A stretch of DNA of 64,000 bases from Pecten maximus (lineage: Eukaryota). The notes below the pieces were generated by a model. The model had not been told where the DNA came from. It did not search any database and saw nothing but the letters and a program-made list of their open reading frames with translations. Shown piece after piece: positions 8,735 through 54,329 of the stretch; within the stretch, counting starts at the first letter, position 1; every line of letters starts with the position of its first letter. The stretch covers positions 2,703,307 through 2,767,306 of the forward strand of contig NC_047026.1 in the NCBI RefSeq assembly GCF_902652985.1. The letters run 5' to 3'. The position numbers and the translations under genes are program-made.

Positions 8735-9220
8735 GTAAGTGGTGATAAAGTGTTTTTGTAAAAATATCTTATATTGTAAGTGATTAGTTTATAAAACGCA
8801 ATAGTCTTGCTGTAATTTGATGTAAATGTGTTTTGAGAAGTTTAAGTTTAATACAGCTGTTTATTTTATGCATAATAATTTTATTTTACACTTTTTGGTT
8901 TTATTTGAATATTATATGCATGTCTCCAGGAAAAATGATTTTAATGCATGGTATTATTTATCTATTGATATTTGTTTGGATACCTGGTAACTACATACAA
9001 TTCTTTGGTAGGGTTTAACCATTTTGTTTACTTACAGGTGTAATATTTAAGTAGTTCTATACAGAATTAGTTTCAATACTCACTTTAATCAGAGCAAACT
9101 TTCATGGACAACTAGCTAGCTATAAAATAGTTGTTTCCATTAAATGTTTGCCGCTGATTTTATCACCATCTCTTCGATTGAGTATGTGTATCATCAAACA
9201 TATTGATTTCATGGTTAAAA

Positions 9221-9630
9221 CAGAGTTGTTGCCCTTTGTGTAAAACATTACAGAGTTATTGCCCATTATGTAATACATTACAGAGTTATTGCCCCTTGTG
9301 TAAAACATTGCATAGTTATTGTCCTTTGTGTATATCATTACAGAGTTATTGCCCTTTGTGTATAACATTACAGAGTTATTGCCCTTTGTGTATAACATTA
9401 CAGAGTTATTGTCCTTTGTGTAAAACATTACAGAGTTATTGCCCTTGTGTATAACATTACAGAGTTATTGTCCTTTGTGTAGAACATTACAGAGTTATTG
9501 CCCTTTATGTATAACATTACAGAGTTATTGCCCTTTGTGTATAACATTACAGAGTTATTGTCCTTTGTGTAGAACATTACAGAGTTATTGCCCTTTGTGT
9601 AGAACATTACAGAGTTATTGCCCTTTGTGT
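9221..9630. repeat. 30-bp minisatellite (cattacagagttattgccctttgtgtataa), about 14 copies, in CDC23 intron 4
   Basis: The 30-nt period is visible. It generates the spurious CPLC-repeat ORFs 9203..9454 and 9439..9687. Confidence 0.9.
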
Positions 9631-9796
9631 ATTGAAGAGATCACAGAGAATATGGTACACTCAAAAATAAATGTCTTTTTCATCTGAAATAAGATGTCAT
9701 ATAAGCTCACAATTTACAAAACGATTTGTTTGCCTATTCGCTTAGCATATTGATTGTTACATTGGCAAAGAAGTATATCTGTAAACTATTCACCAG

Positions 9797-10847: not shown

Positions 10848-11155
10848 GCTAGTTGAATTTCGTAACAGAAGGGAATAATTCTGTGCTATCGGATTATTGG
10901 GGATTCTGTAGTTCAATTTTGTGACAGAAGGGAATATTTCTGTAATATCAGATTATTGGGGGTTCCGTAGTTTGATTTTGTGATGGAAGGGAATATTTCT
11001 GTAATATCAGATTATCGGGGGTTCCGTAGTTTGATTTTGTGTCAGAAGTGAATATTTCTGCACTGTCAAATTATTGGGGGTTCCATAGTTTGATTTTCTG
11101 ACGGAAGGGAATGTTTCTGTAATATCGGATTATAAGTGATTCCGTAGTTTGATTA
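10848..11155. repeat. Tandem repeat of about 60 bp, 5 copies, in CDC23 intron 6
   Basis: tagtttgattttgtgatggaagggaatatttctgtaatatcagattatcgggggttccg is reiterated. Confidence 0.85.
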
Positions 11156-13834: not shown

Positions 13835-13943
13835 AGGTTGAGCGGAGAGACTACCGAGCATGGTACGGACTTGGACAAACCTACGAAATCCTCAAAATGC
13901 ACTACTACTGTCTCTACTACTACAGACAAGCTCAGAAACTCAG
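13835..13943 (+). CDS. CDC23: CDC23 exon 10 ([36 protein letters not shown])
   Basis: Acceptor gttttatcag| and donor ag|gtgagt. Matches human [36 protein letters not shown]. The donor at 13944 is the first copy of a 37-bp tandem array. Confidence 0.9.
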
Positions 13944-15070
13944 GTGAGTCACCATATCATTGTCAGGCTCAGAAACTCAGGTGAGTCACCATATCATTGT
14001 CAGGCTCAGAAACTCAGGTGAGTCACCATATCATTGTCAGGCTCAGAAACTCAGGTGAGTCACCATATCATTGTCAGACTCAGAAACTCAGGTGAGTCAC
14101 CATATCATTGACAGGCTCAGAAACTCAGGTGAGTCACCATATCATTGTCAGGCTCAGAAACTCAGGTGAGTCACCATATCATTGTCAGGCTTAGAAACTT
14201 GGGTGAGTCACCATATCATTGTCAGGCTCAGAAACTCAGGTGAGTCACCATATCATTGTCAGGCTCAGAGACTCGGGTGAGTCACCATATCATTGTCAGG
14301 CTCAGAAACTCAGGTGAGTCACCATATCATTTTCAGGCTTAGAAACTCAAGTGAGTCACCATATCATTGTCAGGCTCAAAAACTCAGGTGAGTCACCATA
14401 CCATTGTTAAACTCTAAAACACAGGTGGGTCACTATATCATTGTCAGACTCGGGTGAATCACCATATCATTGTCAGGCTCAGAAACTCAGGTGAGTCACC
14501 ATATCATTTTCAGGCTTAGAAACTCAAGTGAGTCACCATATCATTGACAGGCTCAGAAACTCAGGTGAGTCACCATATCATTGTTAGACTCTAAAACACA
14601 GGTGGGTCACTATATCATTGTCAGACTCGGGTGAATCACCATATCATTGTCAGGCTCAGAAACTCAGGTGAGTCACCATACCATTGTTAGACTCTAAAAC
14701 ACAGGTGGGTCACTATATTATTGTCAGACTCTGGTGAATCACCATATCATTGTCGGGCTCAGAAACTCAGGTGAGTCACCATATCATTGTCAGGCTCAGA
14801 GACTCAGGTGAGTCACCATATCATTGACAGGCTCAGAAACTCAGGTGAGTCACCATATCATTGTTAGACTCTAAAACACAGGTGGGTCACTATATCATTG
14901 TCAGACTCGGGTGAATCACCATATCATTGTCAGGCTCAGAAACTCAGGTGAGTCACCATATCATTGACAGGCTCAGAAACTCAGGTGAGTCACCATACCA
15001 TTGTCGGGCTCAGAAACTCAGGTGAGTCACCATATCATTGACAGGCTCAAAAATTTGGGTGTGTCACCAT
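13944..15070 (+). repeat. 37-bp tandem array (gtgagtcaccatatcattgtcaggctcagaaactcag), about 30 copies. It begins exactly at the exon 10 donor, and each unit repeats the exon's last 13 nt plus the GTGAGT donor
   Basis: The first unit is the authentic splice junction ctcagaaactcag|gtgagt. Confidence 0.95.
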
Positions 15071-15390
15071 ATTACTGTTAGTCCCAGAAATAGTATTCAG
15101 GTATATATATCACTTTCACTGTTACCACCATAAGAAAGTTAAAGTCAATTCACTGTTACCACCATAAGAAAGTCAATTTAATAATTTCTACCAAAAAATG
15201 GTTAAGAAATGTTCCTTCGAATATTTGGCAAAACTGAAAACAAAGTGAACCATTCAAAGCATGCTTTACAGTATTGATAATTCCTTTAGAATACATTCAG
15301 GTAATTTGTATGGAGGTATACATATGTTGACTCTTGTAGCTATAAACTATGGAATGATTAATTTCTCATGCTTGTAAATGTTCCTTTCAG

Positions 15391-15528
15391 ACCGAATGAC
15401 TCTCGGATGGTGATGGCCCTGGGAGAGACATACGAGAAATTAGAGAGGCTGCAGGAGGCTAAGAAATGTTTCTGGAAGGCCAACTGTATAGGAGATATGG
15501 AGGGAACTGCCCTCATCAAACTAGCCAG
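15391..15528 (+). CDS. CDC23: CDC23 exon 11 (RPNDSRMVMALGETYEKLERLQEAKKCFWKANCIGDMEGTALIKLA)
   Basis: Acceptor ttcctttcag| and donor ag|gtcagt. Matches human RPNDSRMLVALGECYEKLNQLVEAKKCYWRAYAVGDVEKMALVKLAK. The last 44 nt of the exon plus the donor form the first unit of a 56-bp tandem array. Confidence 0.9.
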
Positions 15529-16452
15529 GTCAGTAATAACTGTATAGGAAATATGGAGGGAAATGCCCTCATCAAACTAGCCAGGTCAGTAATAACTGTA
15601 TAGGAGATATGGAGGGAAAATCCCTCATCAAACTAGCCAGGTCAGTAATAACTGTATAGGAGATATGGAGGGAAATGCCCTCATCAAACTAGCCAGGTCA
15701 GTAATAACTGTATAGGAGACGTGGAGGGAACTGCCCCCATCAAACTAGCCAGGTCAGTAATAAGTATGTAGGAGATATGGAGGGAACTGCCCTCATCAAA
15801 CTAGTCAGGTCAGTAATAAGTATGTAGGAGATATGGAGGGAACTGCCCTCATCAAACTAGCCAGGTCAGTAATAACTGTATAGGAGACATGGAGGGAAAT
15901 GCCCTCATCAAACTAGCCAGGTCAATAATAACTATGTAGGAGATATGGAGGGAACTGCCCCCATCAAACTAGCCAGGTCAGTAATAAGTATGTAGGAGAT
16001 ATGGAGAGAAATGCCCTCATCAAACTAGCCAGGTCAGTAATAACTGTATAGGAGATATGGAGGGAAATGCCCTCATCAAACTAGCCAGGTCAGTAATAAC
16101 TGTATAGGAGATATGGAGGGAAATGCCCTCATCAAACTAGCCAGGTCAGTAATAACTGTATAGGAGATATGGAGGGAACTGTCCTCATCAAACTAGCCAG
16201 GTCAGTAATAACTGTATAGGAGATATGGAGGGAACTGTCCTCATCAAACTAGCCAGGTCAGTAATAAGTATGTAGGAGACGTGGAGGGAACTGCCCTCAT
16301 CAAACTAGCCAGGTCAGTAATAAGTATGTAGGAGATATGGAGGGAACTGCCCTCATCAAACTAATCAGGTCAGTAATAAGTATGTAGGAGATATGGAGAG
16401 AAATGCCCTCATCAAACTAGCCAGGTCAGTAATAACTGTATGGGAAATATGG
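15485..16452 (+). repeat. 56-bp tandem array, about 17 copies. It begins 44 nt before the end of exon 11, and each unit is the exon's 3' end plus the GTCAGT donor plus 6 nt of intron
   Basis: The unit tgtataggagatatggagggaactgccctcatcaaactagccag|gtcagtaataac repeats with a 56-nt period. Confidence 0.95.
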
Positions 16453-18745
16453 AGGGATCTTTCTCAAATTTCATATGTAGGTTCCCCTTGGTGCCTAGTT
16501 ATGCATATTGCGTTTTGAGACCAATCTGAAAACAACATGGCCGACAGGCAGCCATCTTGGATTTTGACAATTGAAGTTTGTTATCGCTATTTCTGAGAAA
16601 GTACTGAAGGGATCTTTCTCAAATTTCATATGAAGGTTCCCCTTGGTGCTTAGTTATGCATATTGCGTTTTGAGACCAATCGGAAAACAACATGGCCGAC
16701 AGGCAGCCATCTTGGATTTTGACAATTGAAGTTTGTTATCACTATTTCTGAGAAAGTACTGAATGGATCTTTCTCAAATTTCATATGTAGGTTCCCCTTG
16801 GTGCTTAGTTATGCATATTGCGTTTAGAGACCAATCCGAAAACAACATGGCCGACAGGCAGCCATCTTGGATTTTGACAATTGAAGTTTGTTATCACTAT
16901 TTCTGAGAATGTACTGAATGGATCTTTCTCAAATTTCATATGTAGGTTCCCCTTGGTGTCTAGTTATGCATATTGGGTTTTGAGACCAATCTGAAAACAA
17001 CATGGCCGACAGGCAGCCATCTTGGATTTTGACAATTGAAGTTTGTTATCGCTATTTCTGAGAAAGTACTGAAGGGATCTTTCTCAAATTTCATATGAAG
17101 GTTCCCCTTGGTGCCTAGTTATGCATATTGCGTTTTGAGACCAATCGGAAAACAACATGGCCGACAGGCAGCCATCTTGGATTTTGACAATTGAAGTTTG
17201 TTATCACTATTTCTGAGAAAGTACTGAAGGGATCTTTCTCAAATTTCATATGTAGGTTCCCCTTGGTGCTTAGTTATGCATATTGCGTTTTGAGACCAAT
17301 CCGAAAACAACATGGCCGACAGGCAGCCATCTTGGATTTTGACAATTGAAGTTTGTTATCACTATTTCTAAGAATGTACTGAATGGATCTTTCTGAAATT
17401 TCATATGTAGGTTTCCCTTGGTGTCTAGTTATGCATATTGGGTTTTGAGACCAATCTGAAAACAACATGGCCGACAGGCAGCCATCTTGGATTTTGACAA
17501 TTGAAGTTTGTTATCGCTATTTCTGAGAAAGTACTGAAGGGATCTTTCTCAAATTTCATATGAAGGTTCCCCTTGGTGCCTTGTTATGCATATTGCGTTT
17601 TGAGACCAATCCGAAAACAACATGGCCGTCAGGCAGCCATCTTTGATTTTGACAATTGAAGTTTGTTATCGCTATTTCTGAGAATGTACTGAATGGATCT
17701 TTCTGAAATTTGATATGTAGGTTTCCCTTGGTGCCTAGTTATGCATATTGCGTTTTGAGACCAATCAGAAAACAACATGGTCGACAGGCAGCCATCTTGG
17801 ATTTTGACAATTGAAGTTTGTTATCACTATTTCTGAGAAAGTATTTAAGGGATCTTTCTCAAATTTCATATGTAAGTTTCCCTTGGTGCCTAGTTATGCA
17901 TATTGCATTTTGAGACCAATCAGAAAACAACATGGCTGACAGGCAGCCATCTTGAATTTTGACAATTGAAGTTTGTTATCGCTATTTCTGAGAAAGTACT
18001 GAATGGATCTTTCTGAAATTTCATATGTAGGTTTCCTTTGGTGCCTAGTTATGCATATTGCGTTTTGAGACCAATCAGAAAACAACATGGTCGACAGGCA
18101 GCCATCTTGGATTTTGACAATTGAAGTTTGTTATCACTATTTCTGAGAAAGTACTGAATGGATCTTTCTGAAATTTCATATGTAAGTTTCCCTTGGTGCC
18201 TAGTTATGCATGTTGCATTTTGAGACCAATCGGAAAACAACATGGCCAACAGGCAGCCATCTTGGATTTTGACAATTGAAGTTTGTTATCGCTATTTCTG
18301 AGAAAGTACTGAAGGGATCTTTCTCAAATTTCAAATGGAGGTTCCCCTTGGTGCCTCGTTATGCTTATTGCATTTTGAGATCAATTGGAAAACAATATTT
18401 CTGACAGACTGCCATCTTGGATTTTGACAATTGAAGTTTGTTATCTCTATTTCTCAAAGTACTGAATGGATCTTTCTCAAATTTCATAAGTAGGTTCCCC
18501 TTGGTCCCATGTATTGCATTTTTGGACCAGTCTGTCCTGAAAACAACCTGGCAAACAAACAGCCATTATCGTTAAATCTCAAATTTCTTATATAGCTAGG
18601 ATTCCCTTGTTTGAAAAGTACTGGAGGGATGTCTCAATTTGCACAGATTAGTAAAATGAAGGGAAAAGTAGAGAAAAGATCAATCTGACATGGAACCTAT
18701 GAAGATCATTCAATGGTGGGCGCCAAGATCCCTCTGGGATCTCTT
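16453..18745 (+). mobile_element. Satellite-bearing composite element: about 13 copies of a 154-155-bp satellite plus a roughly 250-bp tail ending in a GATCCCTCTGGGATC hairpin
   Basis: The period is visible (gggatctttctc recurs at 16455, 16609 and 16764). The terminal sequence cattcaatggtgggcgccaagatccctctgggatct is shared, reverse-complemented, with the elements at 43893, 49865 and 51757. Confidence 0.8.
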
Positions 18746-18997
18746 GTTTCTTTTCTTTTTTTTTAATTTCTGGTCATTTTTATGGCAGTTGTGTCTCTTT
18801 CGGTTATGATTGTAAAAAGAATCTTTTCCAGACAATTTCCTTGCCGTCTCCATCCAAACTTGTTTGGAAATTTCACTGATGTAGTCACCATACACTATGC
18901 ACTTGCTGTTTTACTGTTTTAACTGTTTTATTATGGCAGTTATGGTAGACACTGTAATCATTAAACTAGCCAGGAGGGTGTAGTTAATGGGAAATTT

Positions 18998-19001
18998 GTG
19001 T

Positions 19002-19050
<49 letters not shown>
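18998..19050. repeat. (GT)9 followed by G35, a homopolymer
   Basis: Visible directly. Confidence 0.9.
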
Positions 19051-19849: not shown

Positions 19850-20240
19850 AATTGAAACAGAATGTAGTTAATGCTTAAATAAGCCCATGCCTGGTAAACA
19901 GAATATAGTGTAATGCTTAAATAAGCCCATGCCTGGTAAACAGAATGTAGTGTAATGCTTAAATAAGCCCATGCCTGGTAAACAGAATATAGTGTAATGC
20001 TTAAATAAGCCCATGCCTGGTAAACAGAATATAGTGTAATGCTTAAATAAGCCCATGCCTGGTAAACAGAATGTAGTGTAATGCTTAAATAAGCCCATGC
20101 CTGGTAAACAGAATATAGTGTAATGCTTAAATAAGCCCATGCCTGGTAAACAGAATATAGTGTAATGCTTAAATAAGCCCATGCCAGGTAAACAGAATGT
20201 AGTTAAATGCTTAAATAAGCCCATGCCTGGTAATAAGCCC
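19850..20240. repeat. 42-bp minisatellite, about 9 copies, in CDC23 intron 13
   Basis: aagcccatgc recurs at 19881, 19923 and onward. It generates the spurious ORF 19868..20242 (the MGLFKH repeat). Confidence 0.9.

Positions 20241-25012: not shown

Positions 25013-25051
<39 letters not shown>
25009..25051. repeat. T14 followed by G29 homopolymer tract, inside the predicted 3'UTR of the giant minus-strand gene (C29-A14 on the mRNA strand)
   Basis: Visible directly. Confidence 0.9.
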
Positions 25052-32189: not shown

Positions 32190-33840
32190 CTACAACATGG
32201 GCAACGTCGACAATTAGCTGAAGAAACAACAGTTCTGTGGTCTACATACACATCGACCATTCTGGCCCGAATTAGCACAGTGTGCTTGCAAAGAATGGTG
32301 TACTTATTGAAACTATTCTACGAGATAAGTTCTGTGTCAAATCAGGGTTGAAAGGAAAATCATGTATTTTTTTTTTTTTTTTTTTTCAGAAATTGAAAAC
32401 TATGGATAATATCGGTAGATCAAGTCACACAAGCAACTTTTTCAAATGCGTTGAGCCTTTGATCAAGCATACCCATCCCCTTTCTTGTTGGAAAAAGTGT
32501 GTCTATGTTTGAGCAGTCACACTTAAAAAGAAATGAATACAACATAATTTGGAGTTTGCCTGAAAGTTGTGTTCAGACCACCATTTCTCTGATCTCCAGC
32601 AACGGGTAATCTTATTTGGTTGACAAATAAATATTTAACAAATAAGGAGCAAAATTATTTTACATTGAAATTAAAACAAAATAGCCGAACAGTTTTTTGC
32701 GACTTAATTCATTCTACATTTAATCTTGTAGTAGCTAATATCTCAGATAGAGGCAGCAGTTTCCAATTAATAACTTTGCGATATTCACGGTACCACTGTA
32801 ATTATTTTATTAAGTTGACAGATATTACACATGTAAATATGAGGTTATTATTAATAGGCTATATAGATACATGCGAGTTAAGCACAATTATACAGTCAAG
32901 TTAAAAAGACAATAAATATAAAAGAAGTTAAGAACATTTTCCTAATTATTAACAATAAATCAAATACATCTCCTGCTGTGTTAAAATTAATTTTGCCAAA
33001 TTTTTTCTCTCTCTTTCTGAAATGAAAATTAATCAACCTGTAATAATTGTCACACTTTTCCATCCCTTTTAAGCTTTAAAAACATGCATCCAGTACAAAG
33101 TTATGTATATACACACAAATATACATAAACAGGGCCTACAGGATAAAACACATACTGATATTATACATAAACTGGGCCTTCTCATACAAATACTAGTGCA
33201 GACTGTCAGCTGAAAGAATTACTTATATTACCAGGAATATACGAAATGTACATATAGACCTGCCTACGGTCAGATATACCTGGTATGAGTTTAAAGATGA
33301 CCTACTCAAACACTTGCTATTATAAACAGGGCTTAATTCAGAGGAATATGAACAGACAGCTGAAGTTATTAAATATTAATAAGCAGACACCTGTCAAGGG
33401 TGTTTCAGGATATCTAATTGTATGGGATTAATATTGATCAATTCTTAGCTTTCGTAGCTCAACCTATACCTTCGTATCTACAGTAACAGACTGGACCTAT
33501 TGAATATATCTAATAAACACCAAGTTATACAAAACTGACAGATATTGTTTACCATGCTCATTACTGGAAATGTATGAATTATCGTGGGTTCCAAATTTGA
33601 TATTTAAAATCAGTTGAATTATACATTAAACAGACAGACAGTTATCGTCAGTAAATTACCTATCAATATTCTATAAAGATTAGACACAACTTTTGTAAAT
33701 ATAATTTTACCAATTTAAATTTGTTAAAATCTGTTATGTCACAATTTCTACGAAGCGGAAATAAAAACGACATTTGTTACAGTTACATGTAGCGATTATT
33801 GTTAGGCCTTGTATTATAGAAACAACCAACAACGGGATAC

Positions 33841-34665
33841 CTCGGGGGTCCTTCCACGAGACGCTGTGTCGTCCACCGACATAGTCACTATGGAAACCAT
33901 AATGACGTTCCTTGTAATCACCATGACGACCTAGACCATTCTGATAATCTTTGCGATAATCTCTCATGTAATCAGAAGAAAAGTTAGTTTTTCCGTGATC
34001 ACGCTGGTATTCCTTCCTCTCGGAGTTATAAACATGTGATTTACGATGATCGTTTTCCGAATGAATATCACCGACAACATCGAGTTTGCTATTATTTTGT
34101 TTCTCGTAATCACGTTTGTGTTTATCACTGTCGTATTTGCGATAATCAGAATAAGTTCCAGATTTGTAATCCAATTTCTGTGTATAATCGTTAAATTTGT
34201 TAGGGGTGTCGACCGACGACGTATAACCGTTATATTTGGTTTGTGTGTCGACTGACGAGGTAGAACCGTTATATTTATTCTGGGTATTGGCCGATGGTGT
34301 ATAACCATTATATTTGGTTTTGGTGTCGACCGATGGCGTACAACCGTTATATTTGTTATGGGTGTCGACCGATGGCGTATAACCGTTATATTTGGTTTTG
34401 GTGTTGACCGATGGTGTATAACCGTTATAATTGGTTTTGGTATCGGCCGACAGCGTAGAACCATTATATTTGTTCTGAGTATCGCCCGATGGTGTATAAC
34501 CGTCATATTTGCTTTTGTAATCAGTGGGATAGCTCTTGTAAGTATCGGCGGGAGTGGTCTGGTCGTCACGGAGATATTTGAAAGTATCGTCACTATGGTC
34601 CCAGTTTCTGTATGCGTCGTCTGTAGTACAATAAAAATATTCTCCTGTACTGGCCACAGAAATAA
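33841..34665 (-). CDS. Giant gene exon: a Tyr-rich region with about 9 tandem 12-aa repeats (KYNGYTPSVDTxT), followed by a DY/RK-rich stretch
   Basis: ORF 33734..34657. Donor cga g|gtatcc at 33835-33840 with phase 1. The overlapping ORF 33964..34593 in the other frame hits a stop before the donor. The 5' boundary is uncertain; a weak acceptor attgtag| at 34666 keeps phase with the upstream exon. Confidence 0.5.
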
Positions 34666-36289: not shown

Positions 36290-36329
<40 letters not shown>

Positions 36330-36348: not shown

Positions 36349-37140
36349 TATCTTAAATAAAAAGAAGTTAATTACTTGAACCTCTAAGAAAACTTGGACT
36401 CTGCATGTCACATGCCTCCAGAGATTTTCAGTATAAGATAATATTATAACTATAGTATAGAATATGTACCTGTGCTTGTATGAATATATTATGTATGATA
36501 CTTAAATACATAAAGTGAAGTTGATTTGTTCAATTTAAAATTTCTTATCACTCAGATTGGAACATAGGAAGGATTAGCAGAGAAAGAAGGAGTGATAGAC
36601 AGAGGGAGATTCACCTGAGTGTGAGCTTTCCATGGTAGAATTTACAGCTGCAAAGAATCGGCAATGGAAGATATATTACCAGTTTATACAACATGCGAGT
36701 CAGAGGATGAAGTGTCCAGTAAATAGTGTGTAAAGATGATATACCATGCACTTCTTTATCCATCAACTACATCATGAACATTCCTAAGAAGTAATGGCTA
36801 AACAAATGACTCATGCATGCTGTACCAAAAAGAAACAGGACAGAAATTTGTGTTTTTGCAAAGCAGAACCACACAGCAAAATATTTCTATATCAAACCCC
36901 TTATCACTCACAAGATCACTATTACCTATGGGCCTCTATAACAAATCCCTGAGGACCTGTGAGTTCACTATTGGCATATAACGAACTACTGTGGATCTTT
37001 AAGTTCAATATGGATCTGTAAAAAATCCCTGAAGATCTGTGGGTTCACTTTTAGCCTGTAACAAATCCCTGAGGACTTATGAGTTCACTATGGGCCCATA
37101 ACAAATTACTGAGGATATGCAAGTTCACTATGGGTCTAAG
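36349..37140 (+). repeat. Segmental repeat unit U, copy 1 (about 790 bp), immediately 3' of MITE copy 3. It ends in a 40-bp tandem sub-array
   Basis: More than 95% identical to 38432-39230. Confidence 0.8.
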
Positions 37141-38210: not shown

Positions 38211-38354
38211 CAGGGGGAAATTACGCTAATTACAAACCGGAAGATCACTTTTACCCACAAAAAATATATACAACAACCAAAACCCACACCCCCCCCCCCC
38301 CCCCCCCCCCCCCACCCCCACCCCCCCCCCCACCCCCCCCCCCCCCCCCACCAC

Positions 38355-38412
<58 letters not shown>

Positions 38413-38431: not shown

Positions 38432-39500
38432 TATCTTAAATAAAAAGAAGTTAATTACTTGAACCTCTAAGAAAACTTGGACTCTGCATGTCACATGCCT
38501 CCAGAGATTTGCAGTATAAGATAATATTACAACTATAGTATAGAATATGTACTTGTGCTTGTATGAATATATTATGTATGATACTTAAATACATAAAGTG
38601 AAGTTGATTTGTTCATTTAAAATTTCTTATCACTCAGATTTGAACATAGGAAGGATTAGCAGAGAAGGAAGGAGTGATAGACAGAGGGAGATTCACCTGA
38701 GTGTGAGCTTTCCATGGTAGAATTTACAGCTGCAAAGAATCGGCAATGGAAGATATATTACCAGTTTATACAACATGCAAGTCAGAGGATGAAGTGTCCA
38801 GTTAATAGTGTGTACAGATCATATTCCATGCACTTCTTTATCCTTCAACTACATCATAAATACTCCTAAGAAGTAATGGCTAAGCAAATGACTCATGCAT
38901 GCTGTACCAAAAAGAAACAGGACAGAAATTTGTGTTTTTGCAAAGCAGAACCACACAGCAAAATATTTCTATATCAAACCCCTTATCACCCATATAGATC
39001 ACTATTACCTATGGGCCTCTATAACAAATCCCTGAGGACCTGTGAGTTCACTATTGGCCTGTAACGAACTTCTGAGGACCTGTGAGTTCACTTTTGGCCT
39101 ATAATCAATCCCTGAGGATCTGTGAGTTCACTATGGGCCTATAACAAACTACTGAGAGTCTGTGAGTTCACTATTGGCCTGTAATGAACTTCTGAGGATC
39201 TGTGAGTTCACTATGGGCCTGTAATAAATCCTTGAGAGTCTGCGAGTTCACTATGGGCCTGTAACAAACTCCTGCAGATCTGTAAGTTCACTATGGGCCT
39301 ATTACAAACTTCTGTGGATCTGTGAGTTCACTTTTGGCCTATAATCAATCCATGAGGATCTGTGAGTTCACTATGGGTTTGAAACAAATCTCTAAGAACC
39401 TGTAAGTTCACTATGGTCCTAAATTGAACTTTTTTGGACCCCTAAGTTCAATTAAAGCCTATAACGAGCCCATGAGGATCTACAAGTTCACCATTAATGA
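38432..39500 (+). repeat. Segmental repeat unit U, copy 2, plus an expanded 40-bp tandem array (ctgaggatctgtgagttcactatgggcctataacaaact, about 12 copies, 38995-39500)
   Basis: Direct comparison with 36349-37140. Confidence 0.8.
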
Positions 39501-40088: not shown

Positions 40089-40439
40089 CTGTCAGAGCAA
40101 ATCATCACATATTACTTACCAATTCTTATTCAATCAAAAACTGCTGACCATATTTATCTTGAACATAAGCCCAGGCCCAGCAATAAGCTGACTGAAATCT
40201 ACTTTGCTGTTTAGTAAAATATTAAGAGTGGAATATTGCAATACCAAATATCCCAATTTCAATATTCAATATAAACCAAACTACTGCCACATACCGAACC
40301 CCCAACCCCCAACAAGATTATGTGATATTCTAGTGTACTATTATATATCAGTAAAATGTATTGTCCCATAAAAAGTACCCACCCAAACCCCAAACCCCAA
40401 ACCCCCAACCCCGATTTTGAGTAAGAGGTTATGTGCTTG

Positions 40440-40660
40440 CCCCAACGTAATTTGAGACAGTTATTTGTATTGCCCCATAGAATTTGAGACAGTTATCTGT
40501 ATTGCCCCATAGAATTTGAGACAGTTATTTGTATTGCCCCATAGAATTTGAGACAGTTATTTGTATTGCCCCATAGAATTTGAGACAGTTATTTGTATTG
40601 CCCCATAGAATTTGAGACAGTTATCTGTATTGCCCCATAGAATTTGAGACAGTTATTTGT
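40440..40660. repeat. 32-bp minisatellite (tgccccatagaatttgagacagttatttgtat), about 7 copies
   Basis: The period is visible. Confidence 0.9.
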
Positions 40661-40949
40661 AAAGTATCCAGATAAAGATAACCTAGGGATTAAAATTTAC
40701 TACCATGACATCTTGTATAAGACATCCCTGTTATGATGTAATGTTGTGTACAGGTGTTTAACACTACATGCATAGATAACTCCTTAATTGAGTTTTAACA
40801 GCAAGAAACATTCAGAGAAAATGACCGATTACATACATCAGGTGGTAAATCATATCCCAATCCATCATATCAAACATAAGGTCAAGGTCACGGATGGTCA
40901 AGCCTTGGTCAGATTGTACCCAACGATGTAGACTGCACATCATATCACT

Positions 40950-41380
40950 ATGACAACGATCCAATCAAACATATCCTATCACTTCTGTTAACGATCCAAT
41001 CAAACGTGTCCTTTCACAACCGTCAACGATCCAATCAAACGTTTCCTATCACGACTGTCAACGATCCAATCAAACGATCACGACTGACAACGATCCAATC
41101 AAACGTTTCCTATCGCTTCAGTTAACGATCCAATCAAGCGTATCCTTTCACAACCGTCAACGATCCAAACAAATGTTTCCTATCACGACTGTCAACGATC
41201 CAATCAAAAGATCACGACTGACAACGATCCAATCAAACGTTTCCTATCAAGACTGTCAACGATCCAATCACACGTATCATATATCACGACTGTCAATGAT
41301 CCAATCACACGTATCCTGTCGTGACTGTCAATGATCCAATCACACGTATCCTATATCACGACTGTTTATGATACAGTGTG
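40950..41380. repeat. Variable-unit minisatellite of 37-45 bp (caacgatccaatcaaacgtttcctatcacgactgt), about 10 copies
   Basis: Visible directly. Confidence 0.85.
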
Positions 41381-42264
41381 TACATTACAGTCTTTCTCAA
41401 GTTTTTAGTTTTTACAGAAAAATTCAAAATCTCATGGCCGACAATGCTCCTGATTATGTAACACTTAAAAACTTCATCTCAAGGTCACGGATGTTCATCT
41501 CAAGGTCATGGATGTTGACCTTGAGATGTCCCAGCACCAGTTACACAGTAATACAGTGAAACTCTCCCAAAACTGTTACCAATATTTCCACATCACATGA
41601 AAATGGCCATCTTTTTTTCTGCAGAAGTATTTGAAACTACCCTAACTAAACCTCAGCTTTGGAGAAAGGATGTCCAACTTTCCGAGTCCTTCATAACGTC
41701 AGAAGATCAATGTTACTAAATTCACTTATTTGTAATAAATTATAACCCAATGTCAGGTCTACTTCCAATTAATATCAGAATTTAGGATACTAGTAATGCT
41801 TCAATCAACAAATTTATACTCCTTATAGTAACTGATACAATATGGAACTGACGAACGAAAACATTGTACAACATGGTGATCAGATTGATGAGGCTTCCAG
41901 CATCTCCACTGTAACATATTTGGTATGCAATGGATCTCATTGCCGTCTGCCACTCTGATAGTCATCAATACACCTGCTTTAATTAAATACCAACTCAATT
42001 TCCCAGTACTGTCCCAGGGGATGAATTCTACAACTAGTCTGACCATCTCCCCAGAGATTTGGGTGAGTCCATGTGCAAAATCAGATTAGGTATGCATGTC
42101 CCAGAAGAGTCCATTATTCAAATGTCTGGGGAGGGGGGGTTGGTTTCTGAAATTGGTTACACTTTGTTACAGGGTTTTTACCTGTATATCCCAAAAAAGT
42201 CCATTTCTCAAAGTGTCTGGCCGAGTATTTCTCAGGGTTATGAAATTTTTTTAGAGTGTCTTAC

Positions 42265-42358: not shown

Positions 42359-43892
42359 CTATAGAAAATCCCAACAAAACACCAATAAATGGCCAGTAAT
42401 GGTCATTGGATTGAGGTCAATCATGTAGAGGTCACCCATTAGAAGAGTGGTGACCACACACAATAGGACAAAGGCATTGTCAGAGATATAATGGTACTTG
42501 TTCTAATTACCATATATATTACATGAATATTATAATTTTATTTTATTAGGTCTGATTGGTTATGGTGGTATTTCATTTTCAGATGTCAGTAAGTTGGAAA
42601 TCAAGGATATTTTTACCATGGACAATTTTAGCTAGAAAATGAAATATTGAAACTTCTTGACATCTAGAGGACCTCATTACCCTGGATTTAGCATGCAGTC
42701 CATAGAATTTTCATGATTTCATACAATTTAAAGCAAAAAAGGGTGCAGTTTTTGCTAAAATAATCAAACAGACTATATTTTTTTCTATTTAATGAATTCT
42801 AATTATATCTTTTCTCACAAAATTTTACTCTATCTTTGAAAATACAGGAAAACTGATAGGCTAATTGAAAAAAAATATCTTCTATTAACACTCGATCATC
42901 CAGTTTCTGTCAAGTGGAACTCTTTTTACAATGGAGGCATATATTCAAAATGTATCATACACCCTTAATGTTTAATATGATAAGTACCCTGTCATTTAAC
43001 AATATCGACTAGCTGATTTCCCATGGGTACTTAACACCTAAAAGATACAGTCTTTGTCCTGACAGTACAGTTATAGCCTCCTTTAAAGCTATATGTCTGG
43101 TGCCTTACTTAATTATGCATGACCACAGCTGTTCTGAGTCACTTGCTGGTATTTCTTTGGAAGCTGATTTCTCAATATTTTAAAGGGTCACACAATCATG
43201 TATCACAGGTTTATTGACTGAAGTATTTCCTTTTCTTTATTTATGTTTTAATTAAGTTTACTACTTGCAACACTGAAATGTATCTTGGGTACTATATATT
43301 TGGAACAGACAATACAAGAGAATACAAAACAAATGGTAGTCTGTCAATTTATTTAAACTGTATTATTGAAATTCTACATACTATTGTTTTTTTGGTTTTT
43401 GTTTTCTTTTTCAATTTCAAAATATTCAAACATCTTATATTTTCAATTTTAATGTTATTTTCAATAAATCCTACAAATGGACAACAATGTCACTTTAATT
43501 AAATCACAAACATTGAGTACATAATTGAAGATTTTCGGAAGTTTTTTTTCTGAAATAAAAGTTTTAGTCAATATCACATTAATACACACTCATTGTTAAC
43601 AAAATTCAAAACTTTTTTTCCAGAAAACACACAGCAGACAATAAAAGATTAAATTAGGTTTTCTCTTTTGTGATAAAATGATACATGTACAAATCGTTTA
43701 GTTTTAAACAATTGTATTGTAAGATACAATCTTCTGTTGTTTGTTGTCGTTGTTGTTGTTTCTGTAACATTTCACAGGAATCCTTCGAAGTCATAGGATC
43801 AACGATATCCACATGACAAAAATTTGTCCAGTTTTCAGGTGGGCAACTCTCAAGACGAATAAATGAATATAGTAAGAAATCCCAAAGGGATC

Positions 43893-44420
43893 TTGGTGCC
43901 CACCATTGAATGATCTTCATTAGCTCTATGTCAGACTGACCTTCTAACTACGTTTCCCTACTTTCTTCTTTTCCTCTTAATAATCTGATAACAAGAACAA
44001 GTGGAACCTATTTGTGAAGTTTGAGGAATATCCCTCCAGTACTTTTCAAGAAATAGCGATGAACAAATTTCAATTCTCAAAATTCAAGATGGTCGCCTCA
44101 GCCATTTTGCTTTCCTGATCAAATATTAAAATCAAATTGGCATAAATAGGGACCAAGGGGTCTTAAACATCAAATTTGAGGAGTATCCCTCCAGTTCTTT
44201 TCAGGAAATAGTGACTACAAACTTCAATTCTCAAAATTCAAGATGGTCGCCTCAGCCATTTTGCTTTCCTGATCAAATATTAAAATCAAATTGGCATAAA
44301 TAGGGACCAAGGGGTCTTAAACATGAAATTTGAGGAGTATCCCTTCCAGTTCAGATGGCTGTCTGTCAGCCATTTTGTTTTTCTGTTCAAAAATCCAAAT
44401 TGAATTGGCACAAATAAGGA
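43893..44420 (-). mobile_element. Degenerate copy of the satellite-bearing element: terminal hairpin end plus about 2.5 diverged satellite units
   Basis: It carries the atcccaaagggatcttggtgcccaccattgaatgatc terminus and units resembling aatagcgatgaacaaatttcaattctcaaaattcaagatggtcgcctcagccattttg. Confidence 0.55.
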
Positions 44421-45755
44421 GCAAGGGGAACCTACAGGTGAAAATTAAAATGATCCAGTTAATTTTTAATATAGATTTCCCACCTGTAGAGACATGTCCA
44501 CTATCAGTGTTAAAATTTCCTATACCACAATCCAAAGGAACAAAATTGTGCCATGGATTACAGCAAAAACACACAAATTAAATTTCTCAAATACATCCAT
44601 GATTAGTCAAAAAAACATATCAATAGGCTTCTTCTTAAATGTTGTTTAATTATGTGAATGTTGGTTTTTTTTCCTGTAAAAAGAGTCAGTGCTCAAAAAT
44701 CTCAATCAAAAGCACATGCACATGTCACACAAGGTTACATGTAAGTTACATATGTACGTGTTAGGAAAATCAATGTTGTGTTATATAATTAGCGCACACT
44801 GTCTACCTCTGCGATGACGACGGTATCTTTTCTTTCTACGAGCTGAAAATATTGTAAGCATTGGCATGCACAATATGTAATATGTATATACATGTATATT
44901 CAGATACGAGCTGAAAATATTGCAAGCATTGGCATGCACAATATATAATTTGTATATATATATGTATATTCAGATACAACATAATATTGTTACACACTAT
45001 CAAATTAAAACTAACTACAGTCTCCGATTCACTTACCTGGTATGAGAAAGCTCATCATGATGGCGTACTTATTTACATCACACAATTTTTACAGTACTGT
45101 AGATGTTTATAATTAGAACATTAGTCTTAGGCATGAATATTTTCTCCAAGCCGAGAAAAATAGATGAAAAGAAGAAAATATCAACGATGATGTTAAATGA
45201 GAAAAGTTGCTTGTCTTTTTAACATCAGCAGCATTTTTATTTTTAGCGAGAAAAAATTCAGAACAACAAGCATAATGGGCATTGCTGAAAAATATATGTC
45301 CCCTTACCGGCCCCTGCTAGAAATAGCAACAGCGACCTTGACCCCAAATCTCTGAAACTCGAATTTGATTGAGAAATTATTGTCCTTTGTCATTGTGTGA
45401 AGTTTTATCAAAATCCCTCAAAGAATGAAGCCGCTAGAGCGCTGACAAACTTTGGCGTTACACAAGTACATACAGGACGGACAGAGAGCTCGAGGAAACC
45501 TATAGTTCCCAGGCACATCACCAGCCGAGGATCTCTTGGACTTATAATGTACTATATTTTTCATGCAAAGGTTGAAATTCAAGGACTTTTTATAACTGTG
45601 TGAACCATGTGTTAGGTGATAATTATAGCCTGATGATCTACAAATTCTACGAACAGAGAGACGGAGAAAGGAAGAACTAAATATAGAATAATTTCAAACA
45701 GCAAAACAGCTAAGCAGTAGACATGTGACATGCTATAATTTGTGTGTGTACTGAC

Positions 45756-47439: not shown

Positions 47440-48660
47440 AGGTATGAATAAATAGACTGAGATTTCTGATTATACCAATAAATAAATAAAATAATTACAC
47501 CGAGATATCAATACACTCTGATTACACCAATAAATAAATAAAATAATTACACCGAGATATCAATAAACTATGATTACACCAATAAATAAATAAAATAATT
47601 ACACCAAGATATCAATACACTCTGATTACACCAATAAATAGATAAAATAATTACACCGAGATATCAATACACTCTGATTACACCAATAAATAAATAAAAT
47701 AATTACACCAAGATATCAATACACTCTGATTACACCAATAAATAGATAAAATAATTACACCGAGATATCAATACACTCTGATTACACCAATAAATAGATA
47801 AAATAATTACACCGAGATATCAATACACTCTGATTACACCAATAAATAAAATAATTACACCGAGATATCAATACACTCTGATTACACCAATAAATAGATA
47901 AAATAATAACACCCAGATATCAATACACTCTGATTACACCAATAAATAAATAAAATAATTACACCGAGATATCAATACACTCTGATTACACCAATAAATA
48001 GATAAAATAATTACACCAAGATATCAATACACTCTGATTACACCAATAAATAGATAAAATAATTACACCAAGATATCAATACACTCTGATTACACCAATA
48101 AATAAATAAAATAATTACACCAAGATATCAATACACTCTGATTACACCAATAAATAGATAAAATAATTACACCGAGATATCAATACACTCTGATTACACC
48201 AATAAATAGATAAAATAATTACACCGAGATATCAATACACTCTGATTACACCAATAAATAGATAAAATAATTACACCGAGATATCAATACACTCTGATTA
48301 CACCAATAAATAGATAAAATAATTACACCAAGATATCAATACACTCTGATTACACCAATAAATAGATAAAATAATTACACCGAGATATCAATACACTCTG
48401 ATTACACCAAGAAATAGATAAAATAATTTCACCGAGATATCAATACACTCTGATTACACCAATAAATAGATAAAATAATTACACCGAGATATCAATACAC
48501 TCTGATTACACCAATAAATAAATAAAATAATTACACCGAGATATCAATACACTGAGATTTCTAATTACACTGATACCGATAAATAAAAAAAATAAATACA
48601 CCAAGAAATAAATAAACTGAGATTTATGATTACACCGATAAATAAATAAAATAAATACAC
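47440..48660. repeat. 52-bp minisatellite (48-bp variants also occur; cgagatatcaatacactctgattacaccaataaataaataaaataattacac), about 23 copies
   Basis: The period is visible (cgagatatca at 47501 and 47553). Confidence 0.9.
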
Positions 48661-49035
48661 CAAGATATAAAGTTCAAATAGCCACTGCAAATGGACATTG
48701 CAAAAGAATGGATTCTGATTGAAGCATGCAAATATGTACTTAGAAATGCACCGGTATGTTGATTATTAAAATATCTCAGACAAATATATATCATGTGATT
48801 GTACATGTACATACATCAAATATACATTGATATACATTATTCCACAAAATGCTTCAAGTGCATCAAACACCTCTGGAATCTTGGGTGGGGATTATATGAG
48901 ACAAGTTGGCCAATGAAATCGCTGCATAAGTAATGGAATGATTTATAATTATATTGAATAAGCTTAAAATGTCGATCACTAAACCTACTCAAGGCACTAA
49001 ATTATATATTTAAGAAATAATTAACGATGATTCGT

Positions 49036-49140
49036 GTATTATTGCAGGATATACAACGAGGACGAGGATATTTTGCAATTAAATTAACATTGCAAAATAT
49101 CCGAGTCCGAGTTGTATATCCTGCAACAATACACGAGTCA
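49036..49140. repeat. Near-perfect palindrome with arms of about 47 bp and a 9-bp loop (cgtgtattattgcaggatatacaac...gttgtatatcctgcaacaatacacg)
   Basis: Reverse-complement comparison of the two arms. Confidence 0.8.
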
Positions 49141-49864
49141 AAGTTGATTATTTCTATTCTACCATGTACTGTTTAGTTCTGAGATCGACCTCTTTCTAAT
49201 AGAAAAACAGCAAAGAAACCCTGGGAAAACCTTATTTCTTGAGTATTGTATTATTTGTTGATGAAATATACAGGCAATAAAGTAATACGATCAAGAGCAT
49301 CTATCATATGGCATTGATTTTGAAAATTTAATCAAAGTACTGAAAGTACTGAAGACACAAACGAAAACAAATTATTTTAACTGCTTTTGTTTAGTGGGGA
49401 CATGGTCAACTTTGTATGGAACATCACCAATACCTGATTAGGACTAGGACAAAATATTGGCAAGAAAAGAAATTCATATCTACTTTTGATTGCAAGTGCG
49501 TCTTGGCAGATAATTGTCAGAATAGGTACTCAGGTAATCTTATTTGACATCTTCATTGGGTTAATGTATACGTAGTTGTAGATGTAATATGAAGGTCCTA
49601 GATTACCTGTAAAATTAATGAGGCCTTTCTTTTCAAACTTTTGAGGATCCCATGCCTATAAGCGTTTCACAAATTATCATTATCATTAGCCATTGAAAAG
49701 ATATTTATACATTTGATGTAGCGCCCCATCTAGCTACCAGCTTTTAGATAAGAGAGAGCTCAGGTTAAAAACTCTTGTGTGATTGTTTTAGGATTTTATC
49801 GTGTGTGTGAGCCCTGGTTTGAATGATGTAATGTCAAGGTTTTGAATGATATTTTGTGGCAGAT

Positions 49865-50455
49865 TGTTCTATCCCTTCAGTACCTTCTGTAAAATAGCGA
49901 TAACAAACTTCAATTGTCAAAATACAATATGGCTGCCTGTCGGCCATTTTGTTTTCCGATTAGTCTCAAAATTCAATATCCATACCTAGGCACCAAGGGG
50001 AACCTACATATAAAATTTGAGAAAGATCCCTTCAGCACTTTCTGAGAAATAGCAATAACAAACTTCAATTGTCCAAATCCAATATGGCTGCCTGTCGGCC
50101 ATATTGTTTTCCGATTGGTCTCAAAATGCAATATGCATAACTAATGTTAGCACCAAGAGGAACCTACATATGAAATTTGAGAAAGACCAATTCAGTGCTT
50201 TCTGAGAAATAGCAATAACAAACTTCAATTGTCAAAACCTAAGATGGCTGCCTGTCGGCCATATTGTTTTCCGATTGGTCTCAAAATGCAATATGCATAA
50301 CTAGAAACCAAGAGAAACCTATATATGAAATTTTAGAAGATCCCTTCAGTACTTTGAGAAATAGCGATAACAAGAATTGTTTACGGATGGAGGGACGGAC
50401 GGACCACGGACGCAGGGCGATTTGAATAGCCGATGGTGGGTTAAAAACACCTGGG
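49865..50455 (-). mobile_element. Satellite-bearing element, short copy: about 3.5 units of the 155-bp satellite, then a GGAC-repeat and cagggcgatttgaatagcc terminus
   Basis: Reverse complement of the 16453-18500 satellite. Its end is shared with 52995-53110. Confidence 0.75.
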
Positions 50456-51756
50456 TCTGATAAACAGACTCTGGAGGCGTAGAATGTGGATGTAGACAGG
50501 GCAGGGTATACCATCACAACGGGCACATTAAACTAAGCACTATATTCAAAACTTAGAATTATATGCTCATATCAGCTCAGACTTGAGAGAGTTTCTTAAT
50601 CGCTCATTAGAGTGAACATGATTTTCATATAGCACTCTACGTTATATGTTTACACTCCATACTGTGTAGCTACAAATAATCTATACAACAAAAACACATT
50701 CATTCACATGTACAGTTCAAATCAATTTGAAGTGGAATTTTGTTTTTCACTTATGTACATTGCATCAAATATTCTCCGCAATAGTATATGTACCATATAC
50801 ATAACTGTAACTGCATGATACATATATATATGTATGGTATATATATCATGTTAATTAATGTTAGTGAGATGTGAATGTAGCTATATGTATTGATATCATC
50901 GATTTCAAAATCAGAGGTTTTTTTTTAATCTGCAGCATCTGTCAGATGAAAATGTAGTTCGAATGCCCAAACTGGATGAACTGTACATGTAGTAGCATTC
51001 TTCAAAGTCCGTTATGAATGCTTTTCATACAAATGTATTTCTTTCAATTGTTCATGTGTTTAAAATATTAGAACACTGAAGTAATTTTTATTTTCATAAA
51101 AATGAAAGTACTGCTTATCTTTAAAACTAAATTGGATATTGATAAGATAAATTTGCCAAAATGTTAAAAATCAAACCTTATTAAGTAGAATCTAAACAGT
51201 TGTAAATGGCTAAGCCCACTATTCTTAACAACAAAATTACTAATTTTGATTCTCTGTCAAATATAATCAGGTTACTTGAAGACTTTGTCAGAAAAGTTAA
51301 CACATACATTGTATATACATTATTAATAGTTGCTTTAATTAAATTAATCTGAATTTGAACATTAAACCGACTTAACAATTTAAATGAAAAAAATGTGTTT
51401 TCACCATTGACCATAATTGATAAGAAAATAATTATTTAACTCAACCTATGATATAGTATGTAACAGCCATCAAGACAATACTATTATCTTTAGTCATGCC
51501 AAGTTATTTCACAATAGGATATATGCACAACACAAAAAAGTTTTACACATTTTTGTTGTTTAGAAGAATAATGAACTTAGTAATTTTTGCTGTTCTTCTC
51601 AAATAATATGTACTAGTGTTGTAAAGAAAAAAAGATTAAATAATAATAATAAATCTAAGTTATAATAAATTATTTGCATTGATTTATCAATACTTTAGTG
51701 TGCATTAGTTTAAAGGTTAATTTAATTCAGAAGCTGAAATGATTTAAGACAGAAAC

Positions 51757-53115: not shown

Positions 53116-54329
53116 AAAAACCACAGATGTAGGAATATAACATTTCAACTGCCTTTAAATATCTCTGGTTAAATTTAGCAATCAGTACATTTTCATGAAA
53201 AATGGTGTTTTCTAAAGAGTTACTGCCCTTTAACCGTCCCTGAAGCGTTCAAAACTCCACCAAAGGTCTATGTAGATGTACATCGTAGACCCCTTTCTTT
53301 TTTATAATATGCTTCGACTGTTATGTAATATTTCAAATGATAATGATAGATCATTTTCTATTTTTTTTAAACCATCACGAATATTAGAAAAAAAGAATCA
53401 GTCGCTATAATTAGAAATGAAATTTTCAGTGACGTCTACATCTGCATGCAGACAGCCACGTTAATGCGGTACGCGTTCTGTAAACGAAAAACTTCATGTG
53501 CATTACGTAGGATATAATCAATAGATCCGAAGTCAATATTAATATTCACAAGTCCATTTGACATTTCGAAACCCTATTCAGTGAGAATTTATTTAACTTT
53601 TTATTTGCAAACATGCGTATGGTACTGGTATGGACTGCCGTTGTTGTGATATTGTCATGATGAATAGACAACTTTTTTTCTTTCGTAAAAAAACATCTAT
53701 ATAATCTAACCATCTGCAGACTACATCAATCACATGCAAGTTAATATTTCAGTGAGAAAATGACAGTCAAAGTTGGGTTTGATCACCTACTCTTGCTTTT
53801 ATTATTGTTTACATTACTGAAAGATGGCGGACAAAATCGGATGCTGGATGAGTGATTTTCAATGTACAAAATAACAACGATATTCCGACGAAACTTTATC
53901 AATATTATAACCCATTCAGTAACATGCCACCGAAGAAAAAAAACACATAGATGTCGATGATGAAAATTCAGCGTGATGTTAGTAGATTTTTCTTCCGGGT
54001 CACAGGTAAGCAGCAATATGGCGCCAGCGAAAAGTCGATTGTATCATTCCGCGTGAAGTCTAATGCGTTCAACGCGGAAAAATATTCTTACGTATCATCG
54101 ACAGAACATACTTAAATTAAATACTTTGAAAACGATCTATTTGTGAGGTTCTGTTGTTTTGTCATATATCTATCGAAACTGCAGTGTTGCATTTGACTCC
54201 GTAAGTCACGGGACTATTTTTTTTTTTGCGATTGAATATGATTGTGAAGTGGCAGTGGAAGTTGTGTCAGAGCGAACGAAAATGCCAAAAAAAAAACCAC
54301 ATTGTCCTGTGAGCTTCTAAAATACAACA

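Follow-up and report, generated by a model that had tools for sequence, protein, structure and literature searches.

A satellite-carrying element from Pecten maximus, the king scallop, probably a non-autonomous Helentron

To establish what a family of 155-bp satellite arrays in a scallop genome represents, we analyzed 64,000 nucleotides of Pecten maximus DNA (NCBI RefSeq assembly GCF_902652985.1, contig NC_047026.1, positions 2,703,307 to 2,767,306 of the forward strand; hereafter the window), in which such arrays occur at four places next to conserved end sequences. We consider it very likely that these copies are a non-autonomous Helentron-type element (HINE; DINE-1-like or pearl-like) of a pectinid scallop. 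We base this assignment on the order of the modules, which equals the published HINE scheme: a 5' subterminal inverted repeat (subTIR), an adjacent inverted repeat (IR), a (GTCY)-type microsatellite, repeats in the same orientation, a 3' subTIR, and a palindrome. We found every structural HINE feature that we examined, with a subTIR that is somewhat short. An initial annotation, made from the letters of the window, had described the satellite as cargo within a composite mobile element, tentatively Helitron- or Helentron-like, and this description is upheld by eight copies, fixed junctions, unrelated flanks, T-rich sites, and the HINE module order. Elements of this kind are already known in oysters, clams, and flies; the scallop family itself is probably undescribed. 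Specifically, a literature search, with Repbase and Dfam outside the comparison, found no paper describing the element in Pecten, and a literature search with k-mers of the monomer and end sequences returned no relevant paper.

Anatomy of the element and its copies

We read the element along the + strand for copy 1 and along the - strand for the other three window copies. The four arrays reported by the initial annotation were all recovered by Tandem Repeats Finder: 13.3 units of 155 bp with 93% matches at 16453-18505 (+, copy 1), 6.9 units of 155 bp at 51940-52996 (-, the complete copy), 3.2 units of 155 bp at 49871-50373 (-, copy 3), and 2.1 units of 154 bp at 44020-44352 (-, copy 4). Mutual identity among the first three arrays is 86-94%. 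The monomers of copy 4 are about 72% identical to this main family and 94.8% identical to each other. A profile search of the 64 kb (nhmmer, with a profile built from all monomers) found no monomer relics beyond the four copies. Of these copies, one has both ends; the 5' end is missing from two and the 3' end from one.

The only complete element in the window lies at 51754-53116 (-; about 1363 bp), beside a T run at 53117-53120, with both end modules and unique flanks. It contains a 5' hairpin, the microsatellite, six full monomers, a decayed monomer, the right (R) module, and a 3' palindrome. Its left half runs from host sequence ending in GGTTTTT into the hairpin TAGCCCACCATC-atca-GATGGTGGGCTA, then TTCAAATCGCCCTGCGTCCGTG, about 17 units of GTCC, and a partial monomer that enters the repeat at about position 124 (GTAAACAATTCTTGTTATCGC...). 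Its right half consists of the six monomers, the decayed monomer, about 105 nt of unique sequence, ATGGTGGGC, GCCA, AGATCCC-tct-GGGATCT, CTTGTT, and a host T. The 5' subTIR GCCCACCAT and the adjacent IR, which form the hairpin (12 nt, 100% complementary), occupy 53089-53116 (-), and the (GTCC)n microsatellite of the left module occupies 53006-53074 (-; about 17 units). The latter is the tract that had been described as (GGAC)n, and a tetranucleotide tract is indeed present: it reads ACGG along the + strand, equivalent to GTCC when the element is read in its own direction, with 16 matches against 0.6 expected. In the array (51940-52997, -), the partial monomer (positions 124-153) is followed by the six full monomers. 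The decayed monomer starts at 52033, so that its first 100 nt or so overlap this part of the array; its late half and the start of the next monomer, followed by about 105 bp of unique R-module sequence, fill 51790-51939 (-). Together, the decayed monomer and its continuation are colinear with 1.1 monomers over about 170 nt, at about 72% identity. The 3' subTIR ATGGTGGGC, a perfect complement of the 5' subTIR, lies at 51781-51789 (-), and the palindrome AGATCCC-tct-GGGATCT with the terminal tail CTTGTT lies at 51754-51776 (-).

The other window copies are incomplete. Copy 1 (16453-18748, +) is 5'-truncated, with 13 monomers, the decayed monomer, and the R module (3' subTIR at 18713-18721, palindrome at 18726-18742, and tail at 18743-18748) and without a left module; it is placed in an intron of the CDC23/APC8 gene, in sense orientation. 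Copy 3 (49871-50442, -), 1.3 kb from the complete copy and in the same orientation, is 3'-truncated: it retains the left module, a short (GTCC)n tract, the partial monomer, and three monomers, and breaks off inside a monomer after ...GTACTGAAGGGAT, without a right module. An 11-nt deletion in its left module removes the hairpin. Copy 4 (43874-44455, -) belongs to a divergent subfamily and is 5'-truncated, with about 2.7 monomers of 154 bp and an R module about 63% identical to that of the main family; its 3' subTIR is identical (43898-43906), and its palindrome is weakened (GATCCCtttGGGATt). The initial annotation had seen an identical palindrome-bearing terminus in each copy. Such a terminus is present in three of the four copies, but it is missing from copy 3 (49871-50442), which is truncated inside a monomer, and it is not identical throughout, differing at three positions in the copy at 43874-43906. 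Likewise, of the two copies described as more complete, both carry the left end, but only the one at 51754-53116 has both ends. About 1 kb upstream of copy 4, at 45300-45540 (-), we noted by eye a CTGTCCGTCC remnant followed by a stretch of about 150 bp with a monomer-like start and end (GTTTGTCAGCGCT...GTCGCTGTTGCTATTTCTAGCAGG); this stretch scores below the monomer-profile threshold and may be the relic of a distantly related element.

To look for copies outside the window, we scanned public metagenome contigs with a 21-mer of the right module, which led to four contigs of NSIT01 (L001-L004). NSIT01 is a metagenome from the gills of Pecten maximus comprising 2.5 million reads; about 70% of its species-matched protein-coding sequences were ascribed to the host, and contigs shorter than 1 kb or covered less than 3x were discarded (PMC5772249). 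Since contigs with the element survived this coverage filter from 2.5 million reads, the element must be multi-copy. L004 holds a second complete element: it begins on the left at 1437, comprises six monomers, and has a right module that reaches the contig end. L001-L003 carry right ends. A scan of bacterial and archaeal genomes (596 Gb) with a 19-mer of the left end gave two matches against about four expected by chance, with no hairpin beside the match in L005, and a scan of viral contigs gave no matches.

The end modules are structured. The left module is represented by the T run plus AGCCCACCATC..GGCTATTCAAATCGCCCTG, and the right module by ATGGTGGGCGCCAAGATCCCTCTGGGATCTCTTGT. The hairpin that had been claimed for the left end is real: it has a perfect 12-bp stem and a 4-nt loop at -16 kcal/mol (z = -6.5, with 0 of 200 shuffles as stable), and it was found in the complete window copy and in L004 (1437-1464), having been deleted from copy 3. 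The right palindrome GATCCCtctGGGATC, with a 7-bp stem, follows the 3' subTIR after 4 nt and leaves 6 nt to the terminus. Four of seven ends have it intact; L001 shows a single mismatch in the stem, copy 4 a version weakened by substitutions, and L003 a truncated one. The subTIRs (GCCCACCAT and ATGGTGGGC) are 9 nt long, 100% complementary, and 1316 nt apart in the complete copy. This 9-mer occurs five times in the 64 kb, against 0.3 expected, and every occurrence is at an element end; the 5' subTIR begins 1 nt past the T run, and the 3' subTIR begins 36 nt from the end. A 28-nt end motif (ATGGTGGGCRCCAAGATCCCTYTGGGAT) occurs three times in the window and the left end module twice, with none expected in either case. 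All three left modules contain the (GTCC)n tract, ranging from 3 units to about 17 (about 4 in copy 3, at roughly 50384-50412, and about 3 in L004). The element has no coding capacity: its longest open reading frames (ORFs), of 40-80 aa, are derived from the monomer or the microsatellite. A homology search with a 76-aa monomer ORF against a collection of 5.8 billion proteins found no homologue, and an exact look-up of the commonest 44-aa monomer ORF found no record.

The HINE structure was worked out in Drosophila DINE-1 and in mite and mosquito elements (Thomas, Vadnagara & Pritham 2014, PMC4067079), and eleven satellite-carrying Cg_HINE families are known in the Pacific oyster (Vojvoda Zeljko et al. 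2020, PMC7492417; Repbase Helitron-N*_CGi). The scallop element resembles the Cg_HINEs of Crassostrea gigas in its module order, with a GTCC/GTCY microsatellite, a variable spacer, and fixed-orientation arrays of 140-180-bp repeats; in its probable oligo-T insertion sites with no evident target-site duplication; in having related subfamilies that differ in all modules together; and in its frequent truncated derivatives in gene introns. It differs in its host (Pectinidae, not Ostreidae), in its perfect 9-nt subTIR as opposed to one of 11-12 nt, and in the 13 monomers of copy 1, where Cg_HINEs typically have at most 5. The link to Cg170-like satellites that the initial annotation had drawn holds for the architecture but does not extend to the monomer, which has no detectable similarity to one CL1 (Cg170-family) array (score of 22, against 18.7 +/- 2.6 for shuffles, 27 of 200 being as good); we therefore rejected membership in the Cg170/HindIII family. 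Elements of the same build had been described earlier as pearl (Crassostrea virginica, Anadara) and DTC84 (Donax trunculus), including an ACGG (= GTCC) microsatellite (PMC3879986). By description, these share with the scallop element an L module, core repeats of about 160 bp, a tetranucleotide ACGG (= GTCC/CCGT) microsatellite, and an R module, as well as an inverted motif that is subterminal at one end, a constant junction between array and microsatellite, and a variable number of core repeats; in the drawing of pearl and DTC84, the microsatellite comes after the repeats because the same element is shown on the other strand. With DINE-1 and other HINEs, the scallop element has in common the subTIRs, a short 3' stem-loop, an IR near the 5' subTIR (at 4 nt, where 3-22 nt are known), the (GTCY)-type microsatellite, the optional central tandem repeats, the probable TT target, the boundary T runs, and the lack of coding capacity. 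Its 3' subTIR lies about 36 nt, and the end of its palindrome about 6 nt, from the 3' end, compared with 38-60 nt and 8-35 nt in mite HINEs. Unlike the scallop element, DINE-1 has a known autonomous Helentron partner with more than 95% identical ends.

With the scallop element, the family Pectinidae joins the pattern known from bivalves, that of non-autonomous Helentrons dispersing short satellite-like arrays through gene-rich DNA; what is known of how such elements work does not change. Its end modules (the GCCCACCAT subTIR, the 12-bp 5' hairpin, and the GATCCCtctGGGATC palindrome) can be used for genome-wide annotation and for finding the autonomous partner.

Element ends, insertion sites, and competing explanations

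To define the boundaries, we aligned seven 3' ends and three 5' ends from eight loci (four in the window and four in NSIT01). All four intact main-family 3' ends, two of them in the window and two in Pecten maximus contigs, read ...GATCCCTCTGGGATCTCTTGT-T (in L001 with one substitution in the palindrome), so that a T follows ...TCTTGT in each, and the sequence thereafter diverges fully (TCTTTTC, TCTGTCT, TAATTTT, and ACGGGAT). The right end of copy 4 reads GATCCCTTTGGGATTTCTT, then ACTATA, and has only part of the main-family tail in common; L003 stops within the palindrome, and the right end of L004 runs off the contig. The three left ends agree in reading A[G/A]CCCACCATC, and the letters before it are TTTTT, TTTTT, and TTATT. 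All ten flanks (250-300 nt each) are unique and mutually unrelated. The ends of the element are sharp, the targets are T-rich, and no duplication is visible beyond the ambiguous T's. The T-rich sites would fit insertion into TT or oligo-T, presumably without a duplication.

These boundaries lie further out than those drawn by the initial annotation. There, one terminus had been placed at TCCCAGAGGGATC after an A, but all four intact main-family ends have 12 more conserved nt (GA plus TCTCTTGTT(T)) beyond it. The other terminus had been placed at cagggcgatttgaatagc, but in all three copies with this end conservation runs on through the hairpin to A[G/A]CCCACCATC, with the T run before it. The 5'-TC and 3'-CTAA landmarks recognized at these places come from reading the element in reverse: the TC lies inside the 3' palindrome, and the "hairpin + CTAA" is the 5' subTIR/IR hairpin. 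With the corrected orientation and boundaries, a genome-wide search would use the right termini.

In a HINE of this structure, the signals for mobility would be the two end modules: at the 5' end, the T run and GCCCACCAT with its neighboring inverted repeat, folding into the 12-bp hairpin, and at the 3' end, ATGGTGGGC, 4 nt, the 7-bp palindrome, and the 6-nt tail. Going by the Helentron literature, an autonomous Helentron at another place in the genome would supply a Rep/helicase(/endonuclease) protein that recognizes these ends in trans; rolling-circle replication, starting at the 5' end and running to the 3' hairpin, would displace one strand, and this strand would be inserted between two T's with no target-site duplication. 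The array belongs to the element, the whole of which has been copied to new T-rich sites. After insertion, arrays expand or contract locally, and copies lose their ends by deletion.

Several points weigh against assigning the element to the HINEs. No empty (pre-insertion) site was found, and for this reason we infer the exact termini, the lack of a target-site duplication, and transposition itself; of the earlier proposal that the satellite spreads by transposition and not only by array expansion, the dispersal of the array together with its end modules stands as an observation. The 64-kb window contains no autonomous Helentron with matching ends and no Rep/helicase ORF, its ORFs of at least 110 aa being host exons or repeats; the autonomous partner is not settled even for the oyster Cg_HINEs (PMC7492417). 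In addition, the perfect 9-nt subTIR (10/12) is shorter than the 11-13 nt (up to 15) quoted for other HINEs, and a complete pair of ends was seen in just two of the eight copies examined. Local rearrangement clearly has a part in shaping these loci as well, since truncation affects three of the four window copies.

An alternative is a cut-and-paste miniature inverted-repeat transposable element (MITE), mobilized by a terminal-inverted-repeat transposase through its short inverted repeats and leaving a 2-bp TT/AA target-site duplication. The inverted 9-nt repeats near both ends would suit such an element, the T-rich flanks (TT before, and T or TT after) are readable as a TT duplication, and DTC84 and pearl were first interpreted in just this way, as MITEs with an AA target-site duplication (PMC3879986). 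However, the repeats of the scallop element are placed asymmetrically: the distance to the nearest end is about 1-6 nt on one side and 36 nt on the other, and a palindrome lies beyond the 3' repeat. This arrangement is the HINE signature. In addition, the count of flanking T's varies among copies. Moreover, the DINE-1-like/pearl group has since been moved to the Helentrons because of autonomous partners that carry the same ends (PMC4067079, PMC7492417). We therefore regard a MITE as improbable.

It is also conceivable that no transposition took place, and that segmental duplication and array breakage of an ordinary satellite produced the copies, the "ends" being neighboring sequence that was duplicated along with it. 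The truncation of three of the four window copies would agree with this, as would the spacing of two of them just 1.3 kb apart in the same orientation, the joining of copy 1 to another tandem array by microhomology, and an evident local duplication of three monomers. Against this, all copies lose homology at one and the same nucleotide, give or take a few T's, 10 of 10 flanks are unrelated, and the copies sit on at least eight separate loci or contigs. Their presence in a low-coverage, host-contaminated metagenome (contigs of at least 3x) implies a high copy number, and the end signals are structured (the hairpin with z = -6.5 and the complementary subTIRs). We consider an origin through duplication alone very improbable.

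The initial annotation had leaned towards a canonical Helitron, with 5'-TC after a host A, a 3' hairpin plus CTAA, and insertion between A and T. On that strand, an A does precede TCCCAGAGGGATC, and CTAA follows the 12-bp hairpin in two of three copies. Canonical Helitrons and the scallop element belong to the same broad rolling-circle (Rep/helicase) group and are alike in having a hairpin near the 3' end, in the absence of a target-site duplication (probable for the scallop element), and in being able to carry foreign or repeated DNA. However, the 12 conserved nt outside the proposed TC in four of four intact main-family ends mean that the TC is not terminal; the hairpin directly abuts CTAA, where a position about 11 nt upstream of the end is expected (PMC4067079); the base after CTAA is A, not T, in three of three copies, with TTAA in copy 3; and the subterminal inverted repeats, the IR, the microsatellite, and the T-rich target are Helentron/HINE features. 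With neither TC as its 5' terminus nor CTRR as its 3' terminus nor an A|T target, but with subterminal inverted repeats, the element falls outside the canonical Helitrons and fits the Helentron/HINE group, and we give a canonical Helitron next to no credence. A short interspersed nuclear element or other non-coding RNA origin was rejected, since the window contains no tRNA and a comparison of 43-54 kb with Rfam gave no relevant hit at E <= 0.1.

Copying and local change of the array

Several observations indicate that the array travels with the ends of the element. Where a left module is present, the array starts directly behind the microsatellite at about position 124 of the monomer, and where a right module is present, the same decayed monomer closes the array; orientation and phase are constant with respect to the ends. 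Some monomers are closer to a partner at another locus than to any other monomer, as seen for monomer 13 of copy 1 and monomer 2 of L003 (c1_m13/L3_m2, 96.7%), for monomers 5 and 6 of L002 and L004 (L2_m5/L4_m6, 97.4%), and for the first monomers of the same two contigs (L2_m1/L4_m1, 95.5%). In addition, R modules are 99.6% identical between copy 1 and L003 and between L002 and L004, and near-identity of this degree (up to 99.6%) at different loci points to recent copying. From the fixed junctions, the positional orthology of monomers, and the near-identical right modules, we conclude that the array and the ends were copied as one unit.

The array has also changed in place. Monomers 1-7 of copy 1 form a 3-monomer (465-bp) higher-order repeat, in which m1, m4, and m7, m2 and m5, and m3 and m6 match at 98.7% each; this shows a later local expansion and explains the unusual length of the copy 1 array. 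Tandem duplication of internal sequence of the element itself is the probable origin of the array, given that the decayed monomer grades into the right module. Each monomer holds AGGGATCT, which is the 3' arm of the terminal palindrome, and both main-family array breakpoints in the window, on the left of copy 1 and on the right of copy 3, fall in this motif. The fusion point of copy 1 reads ...GGAGGGA|TCTTTC, the truncation point of copy 3 reads ...GAAGGGAT|, and the 3' end of L003 stops inside the palindrome. With three cases, this coincidence of breakpoints and motif is only a lead. One could speculate that the internal AGGGATCT motifs are cryptic Rep nicking or termination sites, such that the transposition machinery, rather than unequal crossing-over, causes the gain and loss of monomers and the truncated copies. 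We think this unlikely; if true, the cryptic nick sites would provide a mechanistic link between Helentron activity and satellite array dynamics.

The CDC23/APC8 gene and other repeats of the window

The gene that hosts copy 1, CDC23/APC8 (PF04049, E = 1.6e-18), contains two minisatellites, at 13930-15090 and 15482-16457 (+), each of which starts exactly at an exon end. In two consecutive exons, which end at 13943 and 15528, the last nucleotides and the GT splice donor have been amplified into a minisatellite. The first array has 32 units of 37 bp (...AQKLR|GTGAGT) with 19 exact copies of CAGGTGAGT, and the second has 17 units of 56 bp (...NCIGDMEGTALIKLAR|GTCAGTAAT) with 16 exact donor copies. 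Because neither 37 nor 56 is a multiple of 3, the use of a downstream donor would shift the reading frame. Duplicated donors are odd for an essential gene, and they could be real, polymorphic, or an assembly artefact. The copy 1 array starts exactly at the end of the 56-bp exon-derived minisatellite, with a shared AGGGA microhomology (16453-16459), and a degenerate 56-bp unit (...ATCATTAAACTAGCCAGG...) returns at 18932-18974, about 190 bp past the 3' end of copy 1, so that copy 1 seems to sit within or at the edge of this minisatellite. No pectinid protein was among the matches of the CDC23 query, and a 678-aa exon in the window had an Argopecten irradians protein as its sole match (71% identity).

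The window is unusually dense in minisatellites of 30-59 bp, with up to 54 units and several inside CDC23 introns. They lie at 723-2625, 9220-9632, 10850-11154, 19855-20233, 40437-40661, 40939-41365, and 47465-48553. The 35-bp array at 40939-41365 is followed by a 13-bp perfect hairpin (41496-41528). Between a 52-bp array and copy 3, at 49013-49155, we observed an inverted repeat with 67-nt arms that are 87% complementary and 9 nt apart; its match to mir-6302 in Rfam is weak and sub-threshold (26 bits against a gathering score of 90). A 307-aa ORF at 33734-34657 (-) is built on a 39-bp/117-bp coding repeat (..TKTKYNGYTPSVDT.. motifs) and has no Pfam match. We also found long homopolymer runs, namely G35 at 19016-19050, G29 at 25023-25051, C38 at 36291-36328, and a C run of about 123 nt at 38289-38411, the last of which has on either side an array of one and the same 40-bp repeat (36926-37138 and 39009-39481). 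These runs may be real, or they may be sequencing or assembly artefacts. Finally, two copies of another repeat, at 62243-62313 and 62768-62866, contain long, perfect palindromes with arms of 33 nt and 47 nt and 5-nt loops. The motif CAGTTGGCATTCATA and about 120 bp of downstream sequence are common to both copies, of which the second has an extra palindrome nested in its loop. Both lie just upstream of a large minus-strand ORF (60007-62043). This repeat is probably a foldback-type element.

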